Shown here: piece by piece, positions 20,103-47,352 of the stretch
Numbering within the stretch: position 1 is the first letter of the stretch
How the letters are laid out: every line of letters starts with the position of its first letter
DNA from: Shigella phage CM8
Length of the DNA: 64,000 nucleotides
Reading direction: 5' to 3' (one strand)
Sequence record: MK962750
Program-made: the position numbers and the translations under genes
Notes under the pieces: generated by a model
Databases searched by the model: none
What the model saw: only the letters and a program-made list of their open reading frames with translations
Told to the model about the DNA's origin: nothing

Positions 20103-21113
20103 TCATTTATAATAACTTCGGTGGTTTTCAAGATAAACCCTCTCAAGGAAGTCATCCCAAAAACCCATGTCTACTTTTTGCTGCATACCGTTCTTAGAAG
20201 CTTCAGTAGATGCTGCTTCTACTTGATCGACCACATCTTCCAAAAACTCTTGAACCGTTTTAAATGGATGTTTACCCAACTTCACGTCGAGAATAAATGG
20301 AGCATCTTGGAGTGGATAAACCAAGTCACCAGTTTTGTAAATTTCCAATAGTTGGAGTCCACCACGGCAAGCATGACTCATAGCTTTCCAGTCAATACCT
20401 TCATTGGCTTCGGCCTTACGAGCACGTTCACCGTATTCAGCATCTAATTTGTTCAGTGACTGCTTAAGCTCAATAAGAGAAAGCGTTGTCTGATATTTAC
20501 GACCCAACACTGTGTAAAACGTCTGTGGGCCTGTTTTCTCATGATTATGGAACACCCATTCACAGAATTCGTTTTCTGGAAGACGATGCTTAATATCTTC
20601 AACTTTAGTACGACGCTGCTTAATGGAACCGTCTTCTTGGTAATCAACCCATTGCTCAGGGATTTGATTAACTACTTTCAATACATCGCGTAATGCAGCC
20701 AAACGAGAACCCTTAACGCCGTATTTAGAAGCTTGCTTACGGACATATCCTAAATAGGATTTCATGTTAGTCGTATAAAAACGAGAACGGTTGTCTTGAA
20801 TAAACTTCCACACATCAGGCAAATCAGATTTAACCACTAACTCAGGTGGAGTGTGAAGCATATCTAACGCTACAGTTTCACCATCTGCTGCTAATTTAAA
20901 GAAATATTTAAGACTATACAATTCGTGGTCAATATCATCTTTAGTGTTTTTAGATGATGTGTTGTTAGTGTTTTTACTCATATGCTCTTTAACATTTCCG
21001 ATAAGAATATCGCGAGCAGGAGGAACAAAAATTTCTTTAAAATCTACATCAGATTCTGGAGTAGAAGTTCCATAAAGATGACTACCAAAATAAGACTTAA
21101 CTACAGTTTTCAT
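20103..21113 (-). CDS. Predicted nucleotidyltransferase-fold protein (pol-beta-like minimal NTase motif)
   Basis: N-terminal GSHLYGTSTPESDVDFKEIFV fits the GS-x(9-13)-DxD NTase signature. Start ambiguous (ATGs at 21137, 21128, 21113); overlaps the 3' end of the HNH gene. Confidence 0.5.
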   Translation of the reverse strand: MKTVVKSYFGSHLYGTSTPESDVDFKEIFVPPARDILIGNVKEHMSKNTNNTSSKNTKDDIDHELYSLKYFFKLAADGETVALDMLHTPPELVVKSDLPDVWKFIQDNRSRFYTTNMKSYLGYVRKQASKYGVKGSRLAALRDVLKVVNQIPEQWVDYQEDGSIKQRRTKVEDIKHRLPENEFCEWVFHNHEKTGPQTFYTVLGRKYQTTLSLIELKQSLNKLDAEYGERARKAEANEGIDWKAMSHACRGGLQLLEIYKTGDLVYPLQDAPFILDVKLGKHPFKTVQEFLEDVVDQVEAASTEASKNGMQQKVDMGFWDDFLERVYLENHRSYYK

Positions 21114-21876
21114 TATTAGACCTTTCATAATCTTCATTAAATTGTACAATCAATCGATGATAATTAGATTTTGGATATCCTAATTTACTTATATAAGTTC
21201 CGAATGACCCACGTTTAGGTCTATTTAATTTAATCCATAACTTATAAAGTAAGTCATAGTCTTGCCAATGTTTACCAGTTCTTTGTCTAATTTTAGATGA
21301 ATTTGATTGTTTCTTTTTAGTTTCAAAATTATTCAAAGATTTTTTGACTGCAGCAGAGTGTTTTTCTTTAACTCCCGGTCGTTTAAAAGCAGCTTTCACC
21401 CCTTTAGATATTTTTTCTTTAACTTCCGGTTTGTTTTGTGCTTCTAACTGGGATTCTGAAATTTTAGCCCTTATTTCAGGAAGACTTAATGTTATCGAAC
21501 GTTTTTCTCTGTATTCATTAGACTTCCACATTTCTTTCATTGTATTAGAATGTATTTTTGAAAATTTTTCTCTAACTAACTGATATCCTCTTGAAGTTAA
21601 TTTGAGATTTCTTCCTAAAGAATCTTCTCCAAAATTATAAAATGACCACCATGCATAAATTAATCCAGGCGAATTATAATGAATTTTAGCTAAAAGCCAA
21701 TGGGCTATAAAATGCTCTCTAGCTGTTAATAAAACTAGATTATCAGAATCATCATTACCACCAATACAAGATGGAATAATATGATGCTTTTCCGTATAAA
21801 AATTTAATTTAGATTTATCTAATTTTCTGAGTTTTCCTTTCTTAATTAAATTATTATATACTTTAGTATAATTCAT
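21097..21876 (-). CDS. mobD: HNH homing endonuclease, MobD-like by position
   Basis: 259 aa; ATG start; HNH motif EKHHIIPSCIGGNDDSDNLVLLTAREHFIAHWLLAK; repeated basic KEK-type motifs in the C-terminal half. Confidence 0.65.
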   Translation of the reverse strand: MNYTKVYNNLIKKGKLRKLDKSKLNFYTEKHHIIPSCIGGNDDSDNLVLLTAREHFIAHWLLAKIHYNSPGLIYAWWSFYNFGEDSLGRNLKLTSRGYQLVREKFSKIHSNTMKEMWKSNEYREKRSITLSLPEIRAKISESQLEAQNKPEVKEKISKGVKAAFKRPGVKEKHSAAVKKSLNNFETKKKQSNSSKIRQRTGKHWQDYDLLYKLWIKLNRPKRGSFGTYISKLGYPKSNYHRLIVQFNEDYERSNNENCS

Positions 21877-34496: not shown

Positions 34497-34970
34497 TTAT
34501 TTGATTTGTTTAGCAGACCAAATGCGATCTTTAATAATTTTTTGGATGTCTTCAACATACTCAAGAGAGTGAGCATGTGGATTATCTTTGAAACTATAAG
34601 CACGAGCTAGTTTTTGGCCTTCAGTTTTGATTACTAAAAGCTCTTTAAGGATAGCTTCATATTTGGAGATAATTCCTTTAACAATATTTTTTTCTTGTGC
34701 AGCTTTAGGATCTGCTTTAGGAGCAGGTTTACCCGAAGCCTTTGCAAAAGCAGCGCCAGTAGCAACTAAACTTTTCCAGGCCATACTAACTGCATTTCCC
34801 GTAAATCCTTCCGCTTTCATGTCGCGTGCGAACTGGAATCGCGATTCATCAGAAGCATCTTTATAAGAATATTTACCCGCTGCAATGGCTGCTTTTGCGA
34901 CAGCTTGAATTTCGGTGCTAGATGCTTCATTTAACACCGCTTCATTTAAAAATTGAGTATATGATTTCAT
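34497..34970 (-). CDS. Basic Ala/Lys-rich protein with capsid-targeting-like N-terminus; candidate internal (head-packaged) protein
   Basis: 157 aa; N-terminus MKSYTQFLNEAVLNE resembles the T4 internal-protein leader MKTYQEFIAEA; a late promoter lies upstream. Confidence 0.5.
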   Translation of the reverse strand: MKSYTQFLNEAVLNEASSTEIQAVAKAAIAAGKYSYKDASDESRFQFARDMKAEGFTGNAVSMAWKSLVATGAAFAKASGKPAPKADPKAAQEKNIVKGIISKYEAILKELLVIKTEGQKLARAYSFKDNPHAHSLEYVEDIQKIIKDRIWSAKQIK

Positions 34971-35006
34971 CTTATTTCCTGTTTTAATTCGTGGTTTTAA
35001 TATACT

Positions 35007-35014
35007 TATTTATA
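35007..35014 (-). promoter_or_regulatory. Late promoter (TATAAATA) upstream of the 34970 start
   Basis: Plus-strand tatttata at 35007-35014, about 37 nt upstream of the ATG. Confidence 0.55.
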
Positions 35015-35020
35015 CTAAAA

Positions 35021-35044
35021 AGCCCCAACCTTTCGGTCGGGGCT
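35021..35044 (-). terminator. Intrinsic terminator, second copy of the agccccaacc/gtcggggct hairpin
   Basis: Same sequence as 34466-34489, followed by a T-run on the minus strand; closes the stable-RNA region. Confidence 0.55.
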
Positions 35045-35054
35045 AAGCCTTGCG

Positions 35055-35350
35055 GCAACCTTGTCGGGGTTCCACCTGCTAAGGCAAGTGTTTGTACGAA
35101 ACGCCGGGATTCGAACCCGGTTATTAAGCAGTTGACGCTACTCAATATTTTTAAAAGGCCATATCTCGACCATATCCGAACGTTCCGTCAAAAACGCTAC
35201 TCGGCTTACGGCAAAGATATTTCCTCGAATCGATAATTCGGTGCGCCGTTTCTGCTGTGATGTAAGAGGGCATCAATAAACGCAAAGATTATTAACGCAA
35301 TTCCTTACTCAGGGAACATCAGTCCGACGACTTACCGGTAGCGACCCGGT
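35055..35350 (-). ncRNA. Putative stable small RNA region, tRNA-like in part
   Basis: ~300 nt without an ORF between a terminator and a protein gene; canonical T-arm ccgggTTCGAATcccgg (reverse complement of 35103-35120) and a 7-bp acceptor-like pairing (cggaacg/cgtttcg), but the D-to-T distance is too long for a standard tRNA. Confidence 0.3.
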
Positions 35351-35353
35351 TTC

Positions 35354-35704
35354 TTAATATTCTTTTAAAGCATCAATCTGTTTACGGCGTTCACGCCATA
35401 AATCAATTGCTTCATACGCGGATTCAACATTTCGAATTGGACGGCATTTATATAAAGATTTGTGATTTTGATATTGCGTAGATAACGGAATTTTATCTAA
35501 AAGGTCTTTACGTTCAAAGTATTCGTAACCATCTAAGCCAAATGAACGATTTTTGAGAAATTGCCAATGACCAAATTCGTTTTGAATATAAATATAATCC
35601 GCATGTTGATAAAGTAAATTAATTTCACGAAATGAGATATGTTTTTCATATTCATTGAAGTAAAATGTTAAATCATGAACTACTAAATAAACATTACCTT
35701 TCAT
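35354..35704 (-). CDS. Hypothetical protein inside the RNA-gene region
   Basis: 116 aa, ATG start, aromatic-rich. Confidence 0.45.
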   Translation of the reverse strand: MKGNVYLVVHDLTFYFNEYEKHISFREINLLYQHADYIYIQNEFGHWQFLKNRSFGLDGYEYFERKDLLDKIPLSTQYQNHKSLYKCRPIRNVESAYEAIDLWRERRKQIDALKEY

Positions 35705-35722
35705 ATTTTCCTCACTTATAAT

Positions 35723-35798
35723 TGGTCGAGGCAGTAGGGATCGAACCTACGACCTAGGACTTAGAAGGTCCTTGCTCTTCCTTCTGAGCTATGCCCCG
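35723..35798 (-). tRNA. tRNA-Arg (anticodon UCU)
   Basis: 76-nt cloverleaf by hand: acceptor cggggca/tgcctcg, anticodon stem aggac/gtcct with loop cttctaa, T-arm gtagg-ttcgatc-cctac, encoded CCA. Confidence 0.8.
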
Positions 35799-35802
35799 TA
35801 AT

Positions 35803-35890
35803 TGGGGTGACCGATGGGAGTCGAACCACCCGAGTCGCAATGACAATGGATTTACAGTCCACACCGCTACCTCTACGGGATAACTCCCCT
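35803..35890 (-). tRNA. Degenerate tRNA-like element (possible remnant or atypical tRNA; anticodon-like GUA)
   Basis: Has a TTCGACT T-loop-like motif, terminal CCA and a 5-bp stem with loop ctgtaaa, but no consistent acceptor or T stem could be paired by hand. Confidence 0.25.
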
Positions 35891-35902
35891 TAATTCTTAA
35901 TT

Positions 35903-35977
35903 TGGTGGCCCTGGGTGGAATTGAACCACCATCTGGCGATTATGAGTCGCTTGCTTGAACCTTCCAGCTACAGGGCC
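35903..35977 (-). tRNA. tRNA with CAU anticodon (Ile2-type or Met)
   Basis: Acceptor ggccctg/cagggcc, anticodon loop ctcataa, T-arm ggtgg-ttcaatt-ccacc, encoded CCA. Confidence 0.7.
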
Positions 35978-35978
35978 T

Positions 35979-36054
35979 TGGTGCTGATTGACGGAATCGA
36001 ACCGCCGACCTTCTCATTACAAGTGAGTTGCTCTACCTACTGAGCTAAATCAGC
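35979..36054 (-). tRNA. tRNA-Thr (anticodon UGU)
   Basis: Acceptor gctgatt/aatcagc, anticodon loop cttgtaa, T-loop ttcgatt, encoded CCA. Confidence 0.8.
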
Positions 36055-36059
36055 AAAAC

Positions 36060-36149
36060 TGGCGGAGGCGATAGGATTTGAACCTATGAGTCGCCGGAGC
36101 GACTGCCGGTTTTCAAGACCGGTGCATTAAACCACTCTGCCACGCCTCC
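36060..36149 (-). tRNA. tRNA-Ser (anticodon UGA), class II with long variable arm
   Basis: Acceptor ggaggcg/cgcctcc, anticodon stem-loop ccggt-cttgaaa-accgg, long variable arm, T-loop ttcaaat, CCA. Confidence 0.85.
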
Positions 36150-36155
36150 AAATAT

Positions 36156-36806
36156 TTATATATTGTTAATTTGATTTAGAATTCTTTTTGCTTGAGTATG
36201 ACTTACGCCAATATGCTTAGCATATTTAGACAATTCGCCACGTTTAGAAAAATCATATAATTTAGAAATTTCTATTCTTCTTTTTCTTTCATCCGCAGAA
36301 ACTTTTGCTTCGTTTGCTTTTGCTATTTTACGTTTAGCTTCTTGAGAATGAGTTTTACCAGCAAAGCCATTCTTCATTAATCCATTTGAAGACCATCCTT
36401 TTAATTTTCCGTTAGAATGTGCCTTTTTAACACCCAATGAAATTAATTCGCGTTGCTGATCTGTCATAGGATAATTATTTATATGATCCCATCCACCTTC
36501 ACCTCCAAGTTTTAAATTATACACATCTGGTCTATTTAAAAACTCTTCTGTGACAATATTTTTCTCGGCTTCAAGCATAGATTCTTTATCGTCAAAATAC
36601 TCTAATATTTCTTTAGAAAAATTTTCTATACCATATTTATCTTGGGCTCTTTTTAATAATTTACCAGAACCCATATATCCATCATCTAAATTTTCGGTAG
36701 AATGCACACCAATATAAATTTTATTATTAATTTTATTTGTTATTTTATAAAGATAAAAATGCATATCAGTCCCTAATAAAGAACTGAGCGTCTCACGACG
36801 AGTCAT
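36156..36806 (-). CDS. segB: GIY-YIG homing endonuclease, SegB-like
   Basis: 216 aa; GIY-YIG motif YLYKITNKINNKIYIGVH...GYMGSG; inserted in the tRNA cluster; alternative start at 36764. Confidence 0.7.
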   Translation of the reverse strand: MTRRETLSSLLGTDMHFYLYKITNKINNKIYIGVHSTENLDDGYMGSGKLLKRAQDKYGIENFSKEILEYFDDKESMLEAEKNIVTEEFLNRPDVYNLKLGGEGGWDHINNYPMTDQQRELISLGVKKAHSNGKLKGWSSNGLMKNGFAGKTHSQEAKRKIAKANEAKVSADERKRRIEISKLYDFSKRGELSKYAKHIGVSHTQAKRILNQINNI

Positions 36807-36810
36807 AAAT

Positions 36811-36884
<74 letters not shown>

Positions 36885-36889
36885 AAATT

Positions 36890-36976
36890 TGGTGCGAGAA
36901 GTGGGACTCGAACCCACAAGGAAATCATTCCGCAGCATTTTAAGTGCTGTGCCTTTACCAATTTGACCATTCTCGC
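36890..36976 (-). tRNA. tRNA-Leu (anticodon UAA), class II
   Basis: Acceptor gcgagaa/ttctcgc, anticodon stem-loop cagca-cttaaaa-tgctg, long variable arm, T-arm tgggttcgagtccca, CCA. Confidence 0.8.
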
Positions 36977-36982
36977 GCTATA

Positions 36983-37591
36983 TTATTTATTACGTGAAAA
37001 AGACTGTTCTATCAATTCTGGACACTTTCGTTCTATCCATTTTCTAGCTTTTTGTGGGCTTATACCTATTATTTTAGCAGCTTTACTAACCCATCCAAAT
37101 TTAGAATAATCGATTTTAACTAATTCTTCGTAAATTTCATCAGTTAAAATCTTTTCATTAATATTTACCAGTAAATGATATAATTTATTATCATTAGCAA
37201 TTTTAATGAATCTTTTATAGTTTCCGCCTTTACTTAAACCTAATGAAGTAATTGCAGATGATATAGTAGCCGAATTTAATAGTGCGTTTAAAATTTCTTC
37301 ATCACTAACATTATAACGCTTTTTATTATTTTTAATATTTTTACCAGCAAAAGTATCAGTTTGCGAATGGCAGTTTGGACATAATAATCTTAAATTTGAT
37401 TTAAGATGATTTTTGTTATTTCCATCAATATGGTCTAATTGCAGAACAATATGCTTATTTTGCCATTTTGAAATTTTACAAATTGCACACTCATATGGAA
37501 AAATATTTTCTTTTATTATTTTGTCTTTCAGCTTTCCTGTACTAAAATTTGGATGTTTTCCTTCAAAAATTTCAGCTAATTTAGTATCCAT
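36983..37591 (-). CDS. Free-standing HNH homing endonuclease
   Basis: HNH/zinc motif CAICK...HIVLQLDHIDGNNKNHLKSNLRLLCPNCH; ATG at 37589-37591 chosen over the ORF-track TTG; C-terminal helix-turn-helix-like region. Confidence 0.7.
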   Translation of the reverse strand: MDTKLAEIFEGKHPNFSTGKLKDKIIKENIFPYECAICKISKWQNKHIVLQLDHIDGNNKNHLKSNLRLLCPNCHSQTDTFAGKNIKNNKKRYNVSDEEILNALLNSATISSAITSLGLSKGGNYKRFIKIANDNKLYHLLVNINEKILTDEIYEELVKIDYSKFGWVSKAAKIIGISPQKARKWIERKCPELIEQSFSRNK

Positions 37592-37690
37592 AATATGATT
37601 CCCAATTATTAACAAAGGCTCTCTAACAAGAACCCTTGATGATAGAGGGTATTAATCAGTGCGGTATGAGTTAATAATAACAAATAATTC

Positions 37691-38206
37691 TTAAAGCAAA
37701 TTAAACATTTTAACGGTCGGCAAAACAATTTCTTTTTCTATATAAGAGTATTTAACACTCTCAACTACACGCAAAAAATCATAATCATAATACTCAGAAG
37801 CATTACCTAAAATATTAATAAGTCCTTCAAGCACTTTATTACCATTCACAAAGAATAAGTCAAATACGCGTTCTTCGTCTTCTTCGGATTTATTACCAAG
37901 GTCAACTTCTATATCAAAGACCTTTTTAATGAATTCTGGATAAAGTTGTTCTGAGAACAGTCCTTCAACCAAGTATTCATAAATAAAAAGCGATTGCTCG
38001 CTGAACAAGCCATTACCACAATAACGTTCAGCTTTAGTACTAGAATGTCTACTTTTAAACTTCTTTAAAAGATATTGAAATTGTAAGATTTCATGCTCTT
38101 CTACGCCAAACAGTGTTTTAGTTTTATAGTTGTCACCATCATTTTCCCAGGTAGTGACATCAATTACGTAACCCTGTGGAATTGTAGTACCTAAACAAAT
38201 ATTCAT
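37691..38206 (-). CDS. Hypothetical protein
   Basis: 171-aa ORF with ATG start. Confidence 0.45.
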   Translation of the reverse strand: MNICLGTTIPQGYVIDVTTWENDGDNYKTKTLFGVEEHEILQFQYLLKKFKSRHSSTKAERYCGNGLFSEQSLFIYEYLVEGLFSEQLYPEFIKKVFDIEVDLGNKSEEDEERVFDLFFVNGNKVLEGLINILGNASEYYDYDFLRVVESVKYSYIEKEIVLPTVKMFNLL

Positions 38207-38496
38207 TTGCTCACCATATTAATGTAAGTATATTCAATACATTCAAGACCCAAAGGATTCTTGAAAATATCATATTCAAGAGGACCTTTTTCTGTTTCAA
38301 TAAAGAAATCAAAATTTACTGTATTAAATTTACGGTCTTCCTTCACTAATTTAACCTGAGAAGATGAACGGTCAATGTAAACCTTTTCAACTTCAAAACA
38401 TGTTAAAACGCCATAATCATCAATCAAGGCTTTAGCCGCGTCTTGATCATATTTATATCCATTTTCAATTGACGATACTTTAGCATAAAGAATCAT
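38203..38496 (-). CDS. Hypothetical protein
   Basis: 97-aa ORF. Confidence 0.45.
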   Translation of the reverse strand: MILYAKVSSIENGYKYDQDAAKALIDDYGVLTCFEVEKVYIDRSSSQVKLVKEDRKFNTVNFDFFIETEKGPLEYDIFKNPLGLECIEYTYINMVSK

Positions 38497-39352: not shown

Positions 39353-39385
39353 TTTAGTTTCCATTTGAGTGTTTGTTTTGATAGG

Positions 39386-39418
39386 GTAATAGTATCACTA
39401 CTAAAACCCAATGTAAAC
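39386..39418 (-). promoter_or_regulatory. Early-promoter-like module (repeated before each gene of the internal-protein locus)
   Basis: tgtaaac at 39412-39418 and gtaatagtatcac at 39386-39398; near-identical copies near 39090-39125, 39745-39790, 40070-40120, 40360-40392, 40720-40765 and 41045-41095. Confidence 0.5.
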
Positions 39419-39436
39419 AACTTTGTGAAAAATTTA

Positions 39437-39724
39437 TTACAAAAGATTTTTAGCAATAATCTTGAGATGTGCCGCAGAAATGTGTTTAGCTTTAAACAAC
39501 GCAGTTTCTTCAGCAGGAGAGATAACGATTGTAGCACCATCCTTTTTAGCAGACCACCCATCGCCTAGGTAAACAGTACCTTTGATTTCTTCGCCATCAA
39601 CCAGACTAATCATTGGTTTACCTTCTCGTCCTTTATTTGCTTTAATAACTTCAGAAGTAAGAGTAGCTTCGGTAATAGTAGAAACCGGGGTAGTTGTAGA
39701 AGTAAATTCTTTGAAAGTTTTCAT
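39437..39724 (-). CDS. Internal (capsid-targeted) protein B, copy 1 (leader MKTFKEF)
   Basis: 95 aa, MKTFKEFTSTTTPVSTITEATLTSE...; ITE motifs fit prohead-protease sites; differs from copy 2 only in the last ~9 residues. Confidence 0.6.
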   Translation of the reverse strand: MKTFKEFTSTTTPVSTITEATLTSEVIKANKGREGKPMISLVDGEEIKGTVYLGDGWSAKKDGATIVISPAEETALFKAKHISAAHLKIIAKNLL

Positions 39725-39796
39725 TTTATTTTCCTAATTAATTTTGATAGGGTAATAGTATCACAACTAAAACCCTATGTAAACAACTTTGTGAAA

Positions 39797-40054
39797 TTAT
39801 TTTAAATCTTCTAATCGTTTCTTCATCTTAGAACCGTTCTTAGCGATTTCGCCTGCATCAGAGCATAATGCTAAAAGCGCTTTAACTTTAGTTTGGTCTC
39901 CTTTAAAAGATGAAGGATCAACAGCAGCAGCAAGTTCTTTAATACGAGAGAAAAGACGCTCAGCTTCAGCTAAAGCCATTCCAAGCTTTACTTCCATACC
40001 GCGGGAAGATTCAGTAATAGTAGTTTTTGTAGCAAACTCTTTGAAAGTTTTCAT
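39797..40054 (-). CDS. Internal (capsid-targeted) protein C, copy 1 (leader MKTFKEF)
   Basis: 85 aa, MKTFKEFATKTTITESSRGME...; identical to 40771-41028. Confidence 0.6.
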   Translation of the reverse strand: MKTFKEFATKTTITESSRGMEVKLGMALAEAERLFSRIKELAAAVDPSSFKGDQTKVKALLALCSDAGEIAKNGSKMKKRLEDLK

Positions 40055-40126
40055 TTTATTTTCCTAATTAATTTTGATGAGGTAATAGTATCACTACCTC
40101 ATCAGTATGTAAACAACTTTGTGAAA

Positions 40127-40698
<572 letters not shown>

Positions 40699-40770
40699 TT
40701 TATTTTCCTAATTAATTTTGATAGGGTAATAGTATCACAACTAAAACCCTATGTAAACAACTTTGTGAAA

Positions 40771-41028
40771 TTATTTTAAATCTTCTAATCGTTTCTTCAT
40801 CTTAGAACCGTTCTTAGCGATTTCGCCTGCATCAGAGCATAATGCTAAAAGCGCTTTAACTTTAGTTTGGTCTCCTTTAAAAGATGAAGGATCAACAGCA
40901 GCAGCAAGTTCTTTAATACGAGAGAAAAGACGCTCAGCTTCAGCTAAAGCCATTCCAAGCTTTACTTCCATACCGCGGGAAGATTCAGTAATAGTAGTTT
41001 TTGTAGCAAACTCTTTGAAAGTTTTCAT
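40771..41028 (-). CDS. Internal (capsid-targeted) protein C, copy 2
   Basis: 85 aa, identical to 39797-40054. Confidence 0.6.
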   Translation of the reverse strand: MKTFKEFATKTTITESSRGMEVKLGMALAEAERLFSRIKELAAAVDPSSFKGDQTKVKALLALCSDAGEIAKNGSKMKKRLEDLK

Positions 41029-46823: not shown

Positions 46824-47352
46824 TATACTTCCAATGAGCGCTGATTTAGGAGAATCCATGGAAGGTTCTTCTATCGACGTCACCTTTACCGCTCAATTAG
46901 AAACAGGTGAAACGTTAGTATCTATAAATATAACTAGTTACGAAGAAACTCCTGGGGTTTTAGTAGAAGAAAATCGCTTATATGGAACATATGAATCTGT
47001 GTTTGGATTTGGAAATGACGCGTTGAAATATCGTTTAGGCGATGAATTTAAAACTGCTGCTTCATGGGAAGAACTTCCTACTGATTCTGATACTCAGTTG
47101 TATTTGTGGAAAGCTCCTCAAAATCTCCAGAAGACATTCACTTACGAAGTAACATTAATATATGACTACCAAGAACAAAGTGAATCTGGAGGTTCTGGCA
47201 GTAATTCTAGGTCATCTTCTGATACTACTGAACCGACGGATCCTCCTGCTCCAGTAAGAAAAACTCTCGTTAAAAATTATACTAAAACTATAGTTGGAAA
47301 TTGGAGTCGTTGGGCTAATAAATTAAGAAGCTATGTGTATGAGAGGTCATAG
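46798..47352 (+). CDS. Hypothetical protein between gene 5 and the PAAR-like protein (5.1-like by position)
   Basis: First ATG at 46798 overlaps the gene 5 end; alternative ATG at 46834. Confidence 0.5.

Follow-up and report, generated by a model that had tools for sequence, protein, structure and literature searches.

Free-standing GIY-YIG endonucleases, their modularity and their association with tRNA clusters are already established (PMC2330249, PMC2988022, PMC13096335). Among those described, the closest to the gene considered here are SegB of the phages T4 and T6 and I-TevI, which is encoded in the td intron of T4. The target of T4 SegB is a T-loop motif within a 27-bp site, and the preferred site lies in the tRNA-Asn of phages that lack segB (PMC2330249). 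The T-loop is also the motif cut by T6 SegB. This enzyme is biochemically active and the Y17A/G19A exchange abolishes its activity; an amplification-based escape from Septu, OLD and ToxIN has been reported for it (PMC13096335). The T4 endonucleases are restrained by hairpins that sequester the ribosome-binding site, as described for segB, I-TevI and mobE (PMC2988022). The gene in question is a GIY-YIG open reading frame (ORF) on the minus strand of a 64,000-nucleotide (nt) stretch of Shigella phage CM8 (sequence record MK962750), which is called the window throughout. It fills the gap between tRNA-Gly and tRNA-Ser, where T4 (NC_000866) and T2 carry tRNA-Pro, and it is very likely an intact GIY-YIG endonuclease gene of mosaic make-up.

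The window is part of a Tequatrovirus (T4-like) genome and is collinear with T4 from 34.6 to 97.5 kb. Its nearest database relatives are Escherichia phages, for example PBM-1, Ec_O157kw and KIT03. ARAGORN finds six tRNA genes in the whole window, every one on the minus strand. In minus-strand order, the cluster consists of an HNH ORF, tRNA-Leu, tRNA-Gly, the GIY-YIG ORF, tRNA-Ser, tRNA-Thr, tRNA-Met, a tRNA-like remnant and tRNA-Arg (Table 1).

The tRNA-Pro slot and the distribution of the cassette

In the comparison with T4, a 655-bp cassette (36805..36151) stands in place of an 80-bp segment (T4 72285..72206) made up of a spacer and tRNA-Pro. Identity to T4 is 100% from tRNA-Leu to 5 nt past tRNA-Gly and resumes 1 nt before tRNA-Ser, and the two flanks of the cassette are 100% and 95% identical. 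Read from these alignments, the cassette replaces exactly the tRNA-Pro of the T4 and T2 arrangement. The missing gene was sought in three ways. No tRNA-Pro is found by ARAGORN in the whole window, with the Rfam tRNA model in positions 34900-38300 (E<=1), or with the T4 tRNA-Pro as a blastn-short query against the whole window. The idea that some of tRNA-Pro survives in the leader or at the end of the ORF was also considered and rejected, the blastn-short matches being confined to the T-loop inside tRNA-Ser.

A preliminary description of this DNA had placed an ORF of the GIY-YIG type between tRNA-Gly and tRNA-Ser, had found no tRNA-Pro and had named that gene as lying between the two in T4. The observation is confirmed: the ORF lies in the Gly/Ser gap and is intact, and tRNA-Pro is present between its neighbours in NC_000866. 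The spacings of 5 and 7 bp given at the time are the differences between coordinates and correspond to gaps of 4 nt to tRNA-Gly and 6 nt to tRNA-Ser. The two findings named in advance as speaking against the description were a tRNA-Pro in the interval and a lack of similarity to SegB; the interval holds no tRNA-Pro by the searches above, and similarity to SegB is present. The interpretation attached to the observation is partly supported, as discussed below, and the exact replacement of tRNA-Pro had gone unseen.

The window-type C-terminal half of the gene is carried by ~55 phage records (coverage of at least 80%) with a sequence that is 98-100% conserved. The C-terminal half of the T4 type of segB occurs in ~67 records, and ~448 have an uninterrupted Gly-Pro-Ser arrangement. 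That cassette carriers and intact Gly-Pro-Ser alleles coexist among close relatives, with conserved flanks, is what one expects of an endonuclease gene that is mobile. A Gly-Ser junction with neither tRNA-Pro nor the cassette was not found in IMG/VR, where the Gly-Pro-Ser control found just one contig, which makes this a weak negative.

The surroundings of 11 full-length homologs, from phages and metagenomic contigs, were surveyed. In eight of these contexts tRNA-Pro(UGG) directly adjoins the homolog, which lies between tRNA-Gly and tRNA-Pro (three contexts), between tRNA-Pro and tRNA-Ala (three), between tRNA-Pro and tRNA-Gln (one) or between tRNA-Pro and tRNA-Pro(CGG) (one). This association is striking given clusters of 10-20 different tRNAs. 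The homologs at the tRNA-Gly/tRNA-Pro position are those of the Jiaodavirus phages KP13MC5-5 and Mineola (CPT_Mineola_142) and of Aeromonas phage Aes012 (Aes012_118). Like the window gene, they start 46-47 nt past tRNA-Gly(UCC), and they are collinear with it over the full length, leader included, with amino acid (aa) identities of 77% for KP13MC5-5 and 44% for Aes012. Unlike the window, these phages retain tRNA-Pro immediately downstream, and the end of the ORF overlaps or abuts it.

Mosaic make-up of the gene

The second ATG of the maximal ORF (36764) is almost certainly, by conservation among relatives, the real start, giving a protein of 202 aa whose gene begins 46 nt past tRNA-Gly. T6 SegB, with identical first residues, T4 SegB and the 202-aa ortholog of Klebsiella phage KP13MC5-5 all start at this ATG, and the GenBank records of PBM-1 and Ec_O157kw annotate 609 nt for the gene. 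In the KP13MC5-5 ortholog an indel disrupts the frame of the upstream ATG, and apart from this the DNA of the 46-nt stretch is conserved, which argues for a leader and not for coding sequence. The first 14 codons of the maximal ORF are thus probably untranslated. The reading of 216 aa was dropped in favour of 202 aa because of the start shared with the relatives and the frame-breaking indel in the ortholog.

The leader is predicted to fold into a hairpin in which the Shine-Dalgarno sequence AGGGA, directly in front of the ATG, is buried. The minimum free energy of the fold is -14.1 kcal/mol (z -2.1), and the same fold is obtained in KP13MC5-5 with -15.0 kcal/mol (z about -2). A scan for sigma-70 promoters and terminators recovers this stem-loop and yields nothing informative beyond it. 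T6 segB has a near-identical leader, and that of KP13MC5-5 is ~83% identical. On the other hand, T4 segB has a different, stronger hairpin at the same place before its start.

The protein has the features of its class. The Pfam GIY-YIG model matches with 26.8 bits (cut-off 22.6), the SegE_GIY-YIG model is also above its cut-off, and the homing endonuclease group phrog_314 matches with an E-value of 1.5e-55. Tyr6, Tyr17, Gly19, Glu67 and Asn83 are invariant across 25 full-length homologs and align with the GIY, YVG, E75 and N90 regions of I-TevI; a counterpart of Arg27 of I-TevI could not be placed with confidence in the alignment. In the AlphaFold2 model, residues 1-80 have a predicted local distance difference test score (pLDDT) of 90-96. 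The top three Foldseek matches to the Protein Data Bank (PDB) are I-TevI's catalytic domain, namely 1MK0 (E 7e-4) and chains B and A of 1LN0, with a Foldseek probability of 1.00 and target TM-scores of 0.63-0.66. The window protein resembles I-TevI in its N-terminal GIY-YIG domain and, by prediction, in the parts that follow: a linker that may be flexible, a motif of the NUMOD3 type and an end that resembles a helix-turn-helix (HTH). It differs in its free-standing gene, I-TevI being intron-encoded, in a sequence identity of ~25% and in its linker, where no zinc finger is evident.

The catalytic module, codons 1-96, is common to T4 and T6 segB. The window segment 36750..36476 is 99.3% identical to T4 segB 71904..71630 over 275 bp, and the match to T6 segB starts within the leader and extends as far as nt 289 with 97.9% nucleotide identity. 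In the protein, 95 of the 96 residues are identical to T6 SegB and 92 of the 96 to T4 SegB. The Y17 and G19 of T6 SegB are conserved, and the identity of 95/96 to an active enzyme lends indirect support to cleavage competence. From codon 97 on, no similarity to T4 or T6 SegB is found in the DNA (blastn, beyond nt 289) or in the protein; the blastp alignment ends at residue 117 with T4 SegB and at residue 120 with T6 SegB.

T6 SegB (KMB99_gp265) is likewise the product of a free-standing GIY-YIG gene in a T-even tRNA cluster, placed in the slot of a missing tRNA. The two genes have the 46-nt leader, the first 289 nt and the catalytic Y17/G19 in common, whereas they are unrelated from codon 97 on and the T6 gene occupies the slot of tRNA-Asn instead of that of tRNA-Pro. 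Biochemical and genetic data exist for T6 SegB. T4 SegB (NP_049745.2) shares with the window protein the catalytic domain, the site in the tRNA cluster and a hairpin that sequesters the ribosome-binding site, and differs in the leader, the first 14 nt, the C-terminal half and the slot. T4 segB is located between tRNA-Ile and tRNA-Arg, and T6 segB between tRNA-Tyr and tRNA-Arg, where T2 has tRNA-Asn. The T6 cluster (NC_054907 65676-66967) reads Gln, Leu, Gly, Thr, Met, Tyr, segB, Arg; it is without tRNA-Pro and tRNA-Ser, yet it has no cassette at that site.

The C-terminal half is predicted to be a DNA-binding module. When it is scanned alone, NUMOD3 is matched with 22.7 bits (Pfam cut-off 20.4) and HTH_10 weakly (E 0.023). 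It also matches phrog_16521 with an E-value of 6e-13. AlphaFold2 models low-confidence linkers at residues 90-96 and 122-136 and a three-helix end at residues 157-201 with a pLDDT of about 90. The identity of this half to that of Klebsiella phage KP13MC5-5 is 86.6% in nucleotides and 82% in amino acids, and to the Aes012 gene it is 39%. The N-terminal half is far more diverged from KP13MC5-5, with a nucleotide identity of 72.6%. Synonymous divergence (dS) from KP13MC5-5 reaches 2.13 in the N-terminal half against 0.43 in the C-terminal one; omega is 0.10 and 0.27, respectively, with purifying selection on both. A five-fold difference of dS within one gene means that the halves differ in their history and that the gene is recombinant.

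By these comparisons, the window gene is a catalytic module of Tequatrovirus segB joined to a recognition module of the lineage found at tRNA-Gly/tRNA-Pro, and the higher divergence of its N-terminal half from KP13MC5-5 is explained by that half being the Tequatrovirus module. The junction of the modules is GGATGGGATCAT(A/G)TAAATA at codon 96/97. The three genes of the T-even phages can be described with the same parts. All three have the N-terminal module in common. The leader is of the window type in T6 segB as in the window gene, and T4 segB has one of its own; the C-terminal half is of type B in both T4 and T6 segB and of type A in the window gene. The motif TATAAATA, the T4 late-promoter consensus, is located at the breakpoint between SegB and non-SegB sequence (36476-36483, minus strand), and a second copy (36153-36160, minus strand) overlaps the stop codon just before tRNA-Ser. 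As T4 late promoters these copies were rejected, the motif being found 16 times in the window against 11.7 expected, which is not above chance.

The preliminary description had called the ORF SegB-like. This stands for the catalytic half, as the closest T4 relative is SegB, and fails for the C-terminal half, which has no similarity to it. A plain T4 SegB ortholog would share the T-loop (TpsiC) specificity of SegB and its role in the preferential inheritance of the tRNA region, and would simply have shifted within the cluster. The best T4 match and a catalytic module near-identical to that of T4 and T6 SegB agree with such an ortholog. In addition, the T6 SegB motif RAWTSGAAC is T-loop sequence, the catalytic domain gives part of the cleavage-site preference of GIY-YIG enzymes (I-TevI, PMC2330249), and several GenBank records name the gene segB. 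However, the half that serves as the recognition domain in this class is the one with no detectable SegB similarity, and this half and the leader have orthologs at tRNA-Pro sites in other genera. The dS difference marks a recombinant gene, and the slots differ (Gly/Ser in the window, Ile/Arg in T4, Tyr/Arg in T6). SegB proper is recognized by homology over the full length and by a site directly upstream of tRNA-Arg, and the window gene has neither. An orthologous SegB is therefore an unlikely description of this gene. The 27-bp T-loop site and the preference for tRNA-Asn are documented solely for the T4-type C-terminal half, and because the C-terminal domain sets the choice of target in this enzyme class, the target of T4 SegB cannot simply be transferred to the window enzyme. 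Most likely, by analogy, the window enzyme works like SegB on another target.

Proposed homing into Gly-Pro-Ser alleles

The window gene probably codes for a homing endonuclease of the free-standing kind that is directed against the Gly-Pro-Ser allele, its target being tRNA-Pro or the edge of this gene. The precedent is the T6 segB cassette, which sits exactly where T2 has tRNA-Asn. Since tRNA-Asn holds the preferred site of T4 SegB (PMC2330249), the T6 cassette has replaced its own target gene, and by analogy the window cassette points to the Pro-bearing allele. The gene would be transcribed within the tRNA precursor, and the hairpin over the ribosome-binding site would keep its translation low. 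In a mixed infection, the C-terminal domain of the enzyme would bind a cassette-free Gly-Pro-Ser region, likely in or at the edge of tRNA-Pro, and the enzyme would cut near the bound site. The break would then be repaired by recombination with the cassette-bearing genome, so that the cassette is copied in and tRNA-Pro is lost. The carrier genome would be immune, as the target is gone from it. The target is deduced from position and neighbourhood only, and the mechanism as a whole is a deduction as well; taken whole, with tRNA-Pro as the target, it is given slightly better than even chances.

Several observations weigh against this homing explanation. tRNAs of the cluster vanish without a window-type cassette, in T6 (Pro and Ser) and in the window itself (Asn and His, by T-loop recombination), so the loss of tRNA-Pro could have been independent of the cassette. 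The tRNA-Gly of the window carries the T6 SegB cleavage motif RAWTSGAAC, and self-cutting is possible. Three of the 11 homolog contexts are not beside tRNA-Pro, and the eight that are cannot be counted as phylogenetically independent, three of them sharing the Pro/Ala arrangement. The z-scores of the leader hairpin are modest (about -2.1). For the C-terminal half, Foldseek gives only non-significant matches to assorted HTH proteins, and for this reason no specific fold is claimed for it; no sequence match in the PDB is found with the whole protein or with a profile of the C-terminal module.

The homing explanation may be widened to a set of interchangeable cassettes, a tentative proposal with clearly less than even chances. 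One leader and catalytic module would be combined with binding modules swapped at the codon 96/97 junction, and each cassette would be directed to, and replace, its own tRNA. The SegB type may thus be directed to tRNA-Asn and the window type to tRNA-Pro.

The gene might also be kept mainly for the benefit of the phage, with breaks in the cluster driving the amplification or reshuffling of tRNA and anti-defence genes and with homing being secondary. In T6, a unit of tRNA-Tyr plus segB is amplified in a SegB-dependent manner (PMC13096335), the leader and catalytic module of T6 segB are the same in the window gene, and the latter also lies among tRNA genes. The window cluster even shows a T-loop-mediated rearrangement, the Tyr/His fusion described below. 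This rearrangement is, however, a deletion that destroyed tRNA-Tyr, tRNA-Asn and tRNA-His and not an amplification. The window holds no tandem repeat of the cassette, and the DNA-binding domain is unlike that of T6 SegB, so that the cleavage pattern may differ. Phage benefit as the main reason is accordingly thought improbable, although it does not exclude the homing explanation, with which it is compatible.

An inactive relic, that is, a decaying endonuclease gene that no longer cuts and is merely carried along, is very improbable: the records of RB51 and vB_SsoM_113 label the gene truncated SegB-like, it is 19 aa shorter than T4 SegB, and T4 itself has defunct endonuclease genes (e.g. mobA and I-TevIII), but its frame is open with 202 aa as in the orthologs of another genus, omega is 0.10-0.27, Tyr6, Tyr17, Gly19, Glu67 and Asn83 are invariant in the 25 homologs, the sequence is 98-100% conserved over ~55 phage genomes, and the truncation is an artefact of the comparison with the unrelated C-terminal half of SegB.

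Neighbouring cassettes, rearrangements and implications

Table 1. Features of the GIY-YIG gene and of the surrounding tRNA cluster, in minus-strand order (positions in the window)
Feature	Position	Strand	Basis or remark
tRNA-Gln 5' remnant, 7 nt TGGGAAT	37598..37604	-	T4 comparison
HNH endonuclease ORF	36983..37591 (maximal to 37615)	-	directly upstream of tRNA-Leu
tRNA-Leu(UAA)	36890..36976	-	ARAGORN and Rfam tRNA model
tRNA-Gly(UCC)	36811..36884	-	left flank of the cassette; ARAGORN and Rfam tRNA model
Leader, 46 nt, from tRNA-Gly to the ATG	36765..36810	-	predicted 9-bp hairpin 36787..36766
GIY-YIG ORF, maximal, 216 aa, ATG start	36156..36806	-	ORF list, Pfam, phrog_314
Likely true coding sequence, 202 aa, begins MHFYLYKITN	36156..36764	-	start conservation
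Catalytic GIY-YIG module, codons 1-96	36476..36764	-	common to T4 and T6 segB
C-terminal DNA-binding module (predicted), NUMOD3 and three-helix HTH-like end	36156..36475	-	Pfam, AlphaFold2
tRNA-Ser(UGA)	36060..36149	-	right flank of the cassette; ARAGORN and Rfam tRNA model
tRNA-Thr	35979..36054	-	ARAGORN and Rfam tRNA model
tRNA-Met(CAU)	35903..35977	-	ARAGORN and Rfam tRNA model
tRNA-like remnant, 87 nt (chimeric pseudo-tRNA Tyr/His)	35803..35889	-	between tRNA-Met and tRNA-Arg
tRNA-Arg	35723..35798	-	ARAGORN and Rfam tRNA model

The tRNA cluster of the window holds two different endonuclease genes, as had been said before, one of the GIY-YIG and one of the HNH family. The HNH ORF codes for 202 aa from its ATG, this shorter form being likelier than the maximal one. 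It matches the HNH endonuclease group phrog_14736 over residues 9-210 (E 6e-124), and its translation shows CAIC...DHIDGN...NLRLLCPNCH, an HNH motif with Cys pairs; the Pfam HNH match is weak (17.3 bits, below the cut-off of 21.4). Direct comparison with T4 72560..72440 places the HNH cassette (36980-37604, minus strand) inside tRNA-Gln, of which the 5' remnant and about 2 nt of the 3' end remain and the rest is gone. The HNH cassette is present in 62 phage records, and it occurs together with the window-type GIY-YIG cassette in ~4 database phages (PBM-1, Ec_O157kw, BP32 and JEP6). Other combinations of two or three endonuclease-type ORFs are found in this cluster elsewhere, e.g. in the pSe_SNUABM_01 and Pu-Krd phages, and multiple endonucleases in it are therefore not exceptional.

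The GIY-YIG gene (36156-36260) and the HNH gene (36983-37110) have a related C-terminal HTH segment, with 12 of 24 aa identical, and both match phrog_16521. The same HTH module is joined to a different small Cys-rich N-terminal domain in T2_137, between tRNA-Ser and tRNA-Met of T2, and in protein 185 of Citrobacter phage Ursula, between tRNA-Asp and tRNA-Met. Outside the cluster, the window carries an ortholog of mobD with 99.6% aa identity (21100-21876) and, near its start (about 379-1098), a further mob-like HNH ORF that is ~30% identical to MobD and MobB. The segC gene and gene 5.3 of T4 are missing from the window, where the alignment jumps from T4 80192 to T4 80775 (window 47329-47349).

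The tRNA-like remnant consists of the 5' three-quarters of tRNA-Tyr(GTA) and, from a joint within the T-loop GGTTCGACTCC onwards, of the 3' end of tRNA-His. Compared with KIT03 and PBM-1, in an alignment that also included Ec_O157kw, the fusion has cost the window tRNA-Asn, a spacer of ~110 bp and the greater part of tRNA-His. The remnant is not called by ARAGORN and scores 22.7 bits with the Rfam tRNA model, against a gathering score of 29; its junction sequence was not found in IMG/VR. The T-loop is the motif cut by T4 SegB (PMC2330249) and T6 SegB (PMC13096335), and recombination between T-loops induced by a break is therefore a plausible, though speculative, cause.

Further differences from T4 are seen around the cluster. 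A 116-aa ORF that matches phrog_3355 (35354-35704, minus strand) follows tRNA-Arg where T4 has rnaD and rnaC, and a stretch of 56 bp (35300-35354) is all that still matches T4 rnaD. Window positions 39378-39812 and 40352-40786 both match T4 73532-73967, in the ipI region, with identities of 95.6% and 93.8%, and both 40020-40339 and the start of a long block from 40994 match from T4 73844. These double matches point to a block of ~1 kb that is duplicated relative to T4.

Dozens of deposited genomes contain the GIY-YIG gene, under the labels 'homing endonuclease', 'segB', 'segD' or 'truncated SegB-like protein'. Its relation to SegB by a domain swap, its place in the tRNA-Pro slot and its orthologs beside tRNA-Pro in other genera were not found described in the searchable literature. 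The labels 'segB', 'segD' and 'truncated SegB-like' are misleading, as just the catalytic half is SegB. Consequently, the results obtained with T4 and T6 SegB on the target motif, on marker exclusion and on the escape from defence through amplified tRNAs should be tested before they are applied to this gene.

If the proposed homing mechanism is true, the T6-type and window-type genes are a natural matched pair, with the same leader and catalytic module and a different binding domain and slot. With such a pair, the role of the binding domain in the target choice of GIY-YIG endonucleases could be tested directly. The mechanism would also help to explain the variable tRNA content among near-identical T-even phages, a variation that matters since phage tRNAs are known to counter host defences that cleave tRNAs. 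If the cassettes are indeed interchangeable, they would show a homing endonuclease being retargeted in nature through the exchange of its domains. With the HNH cassette in tRNA-Gln included, endonucleases would then be the main force behind the loss and reshuffling of tRNA genes in phages. The locus would offer, within a well-understood framework, a testable example of endonuclease retargeting and of tRNA loss caused by a selfish element.

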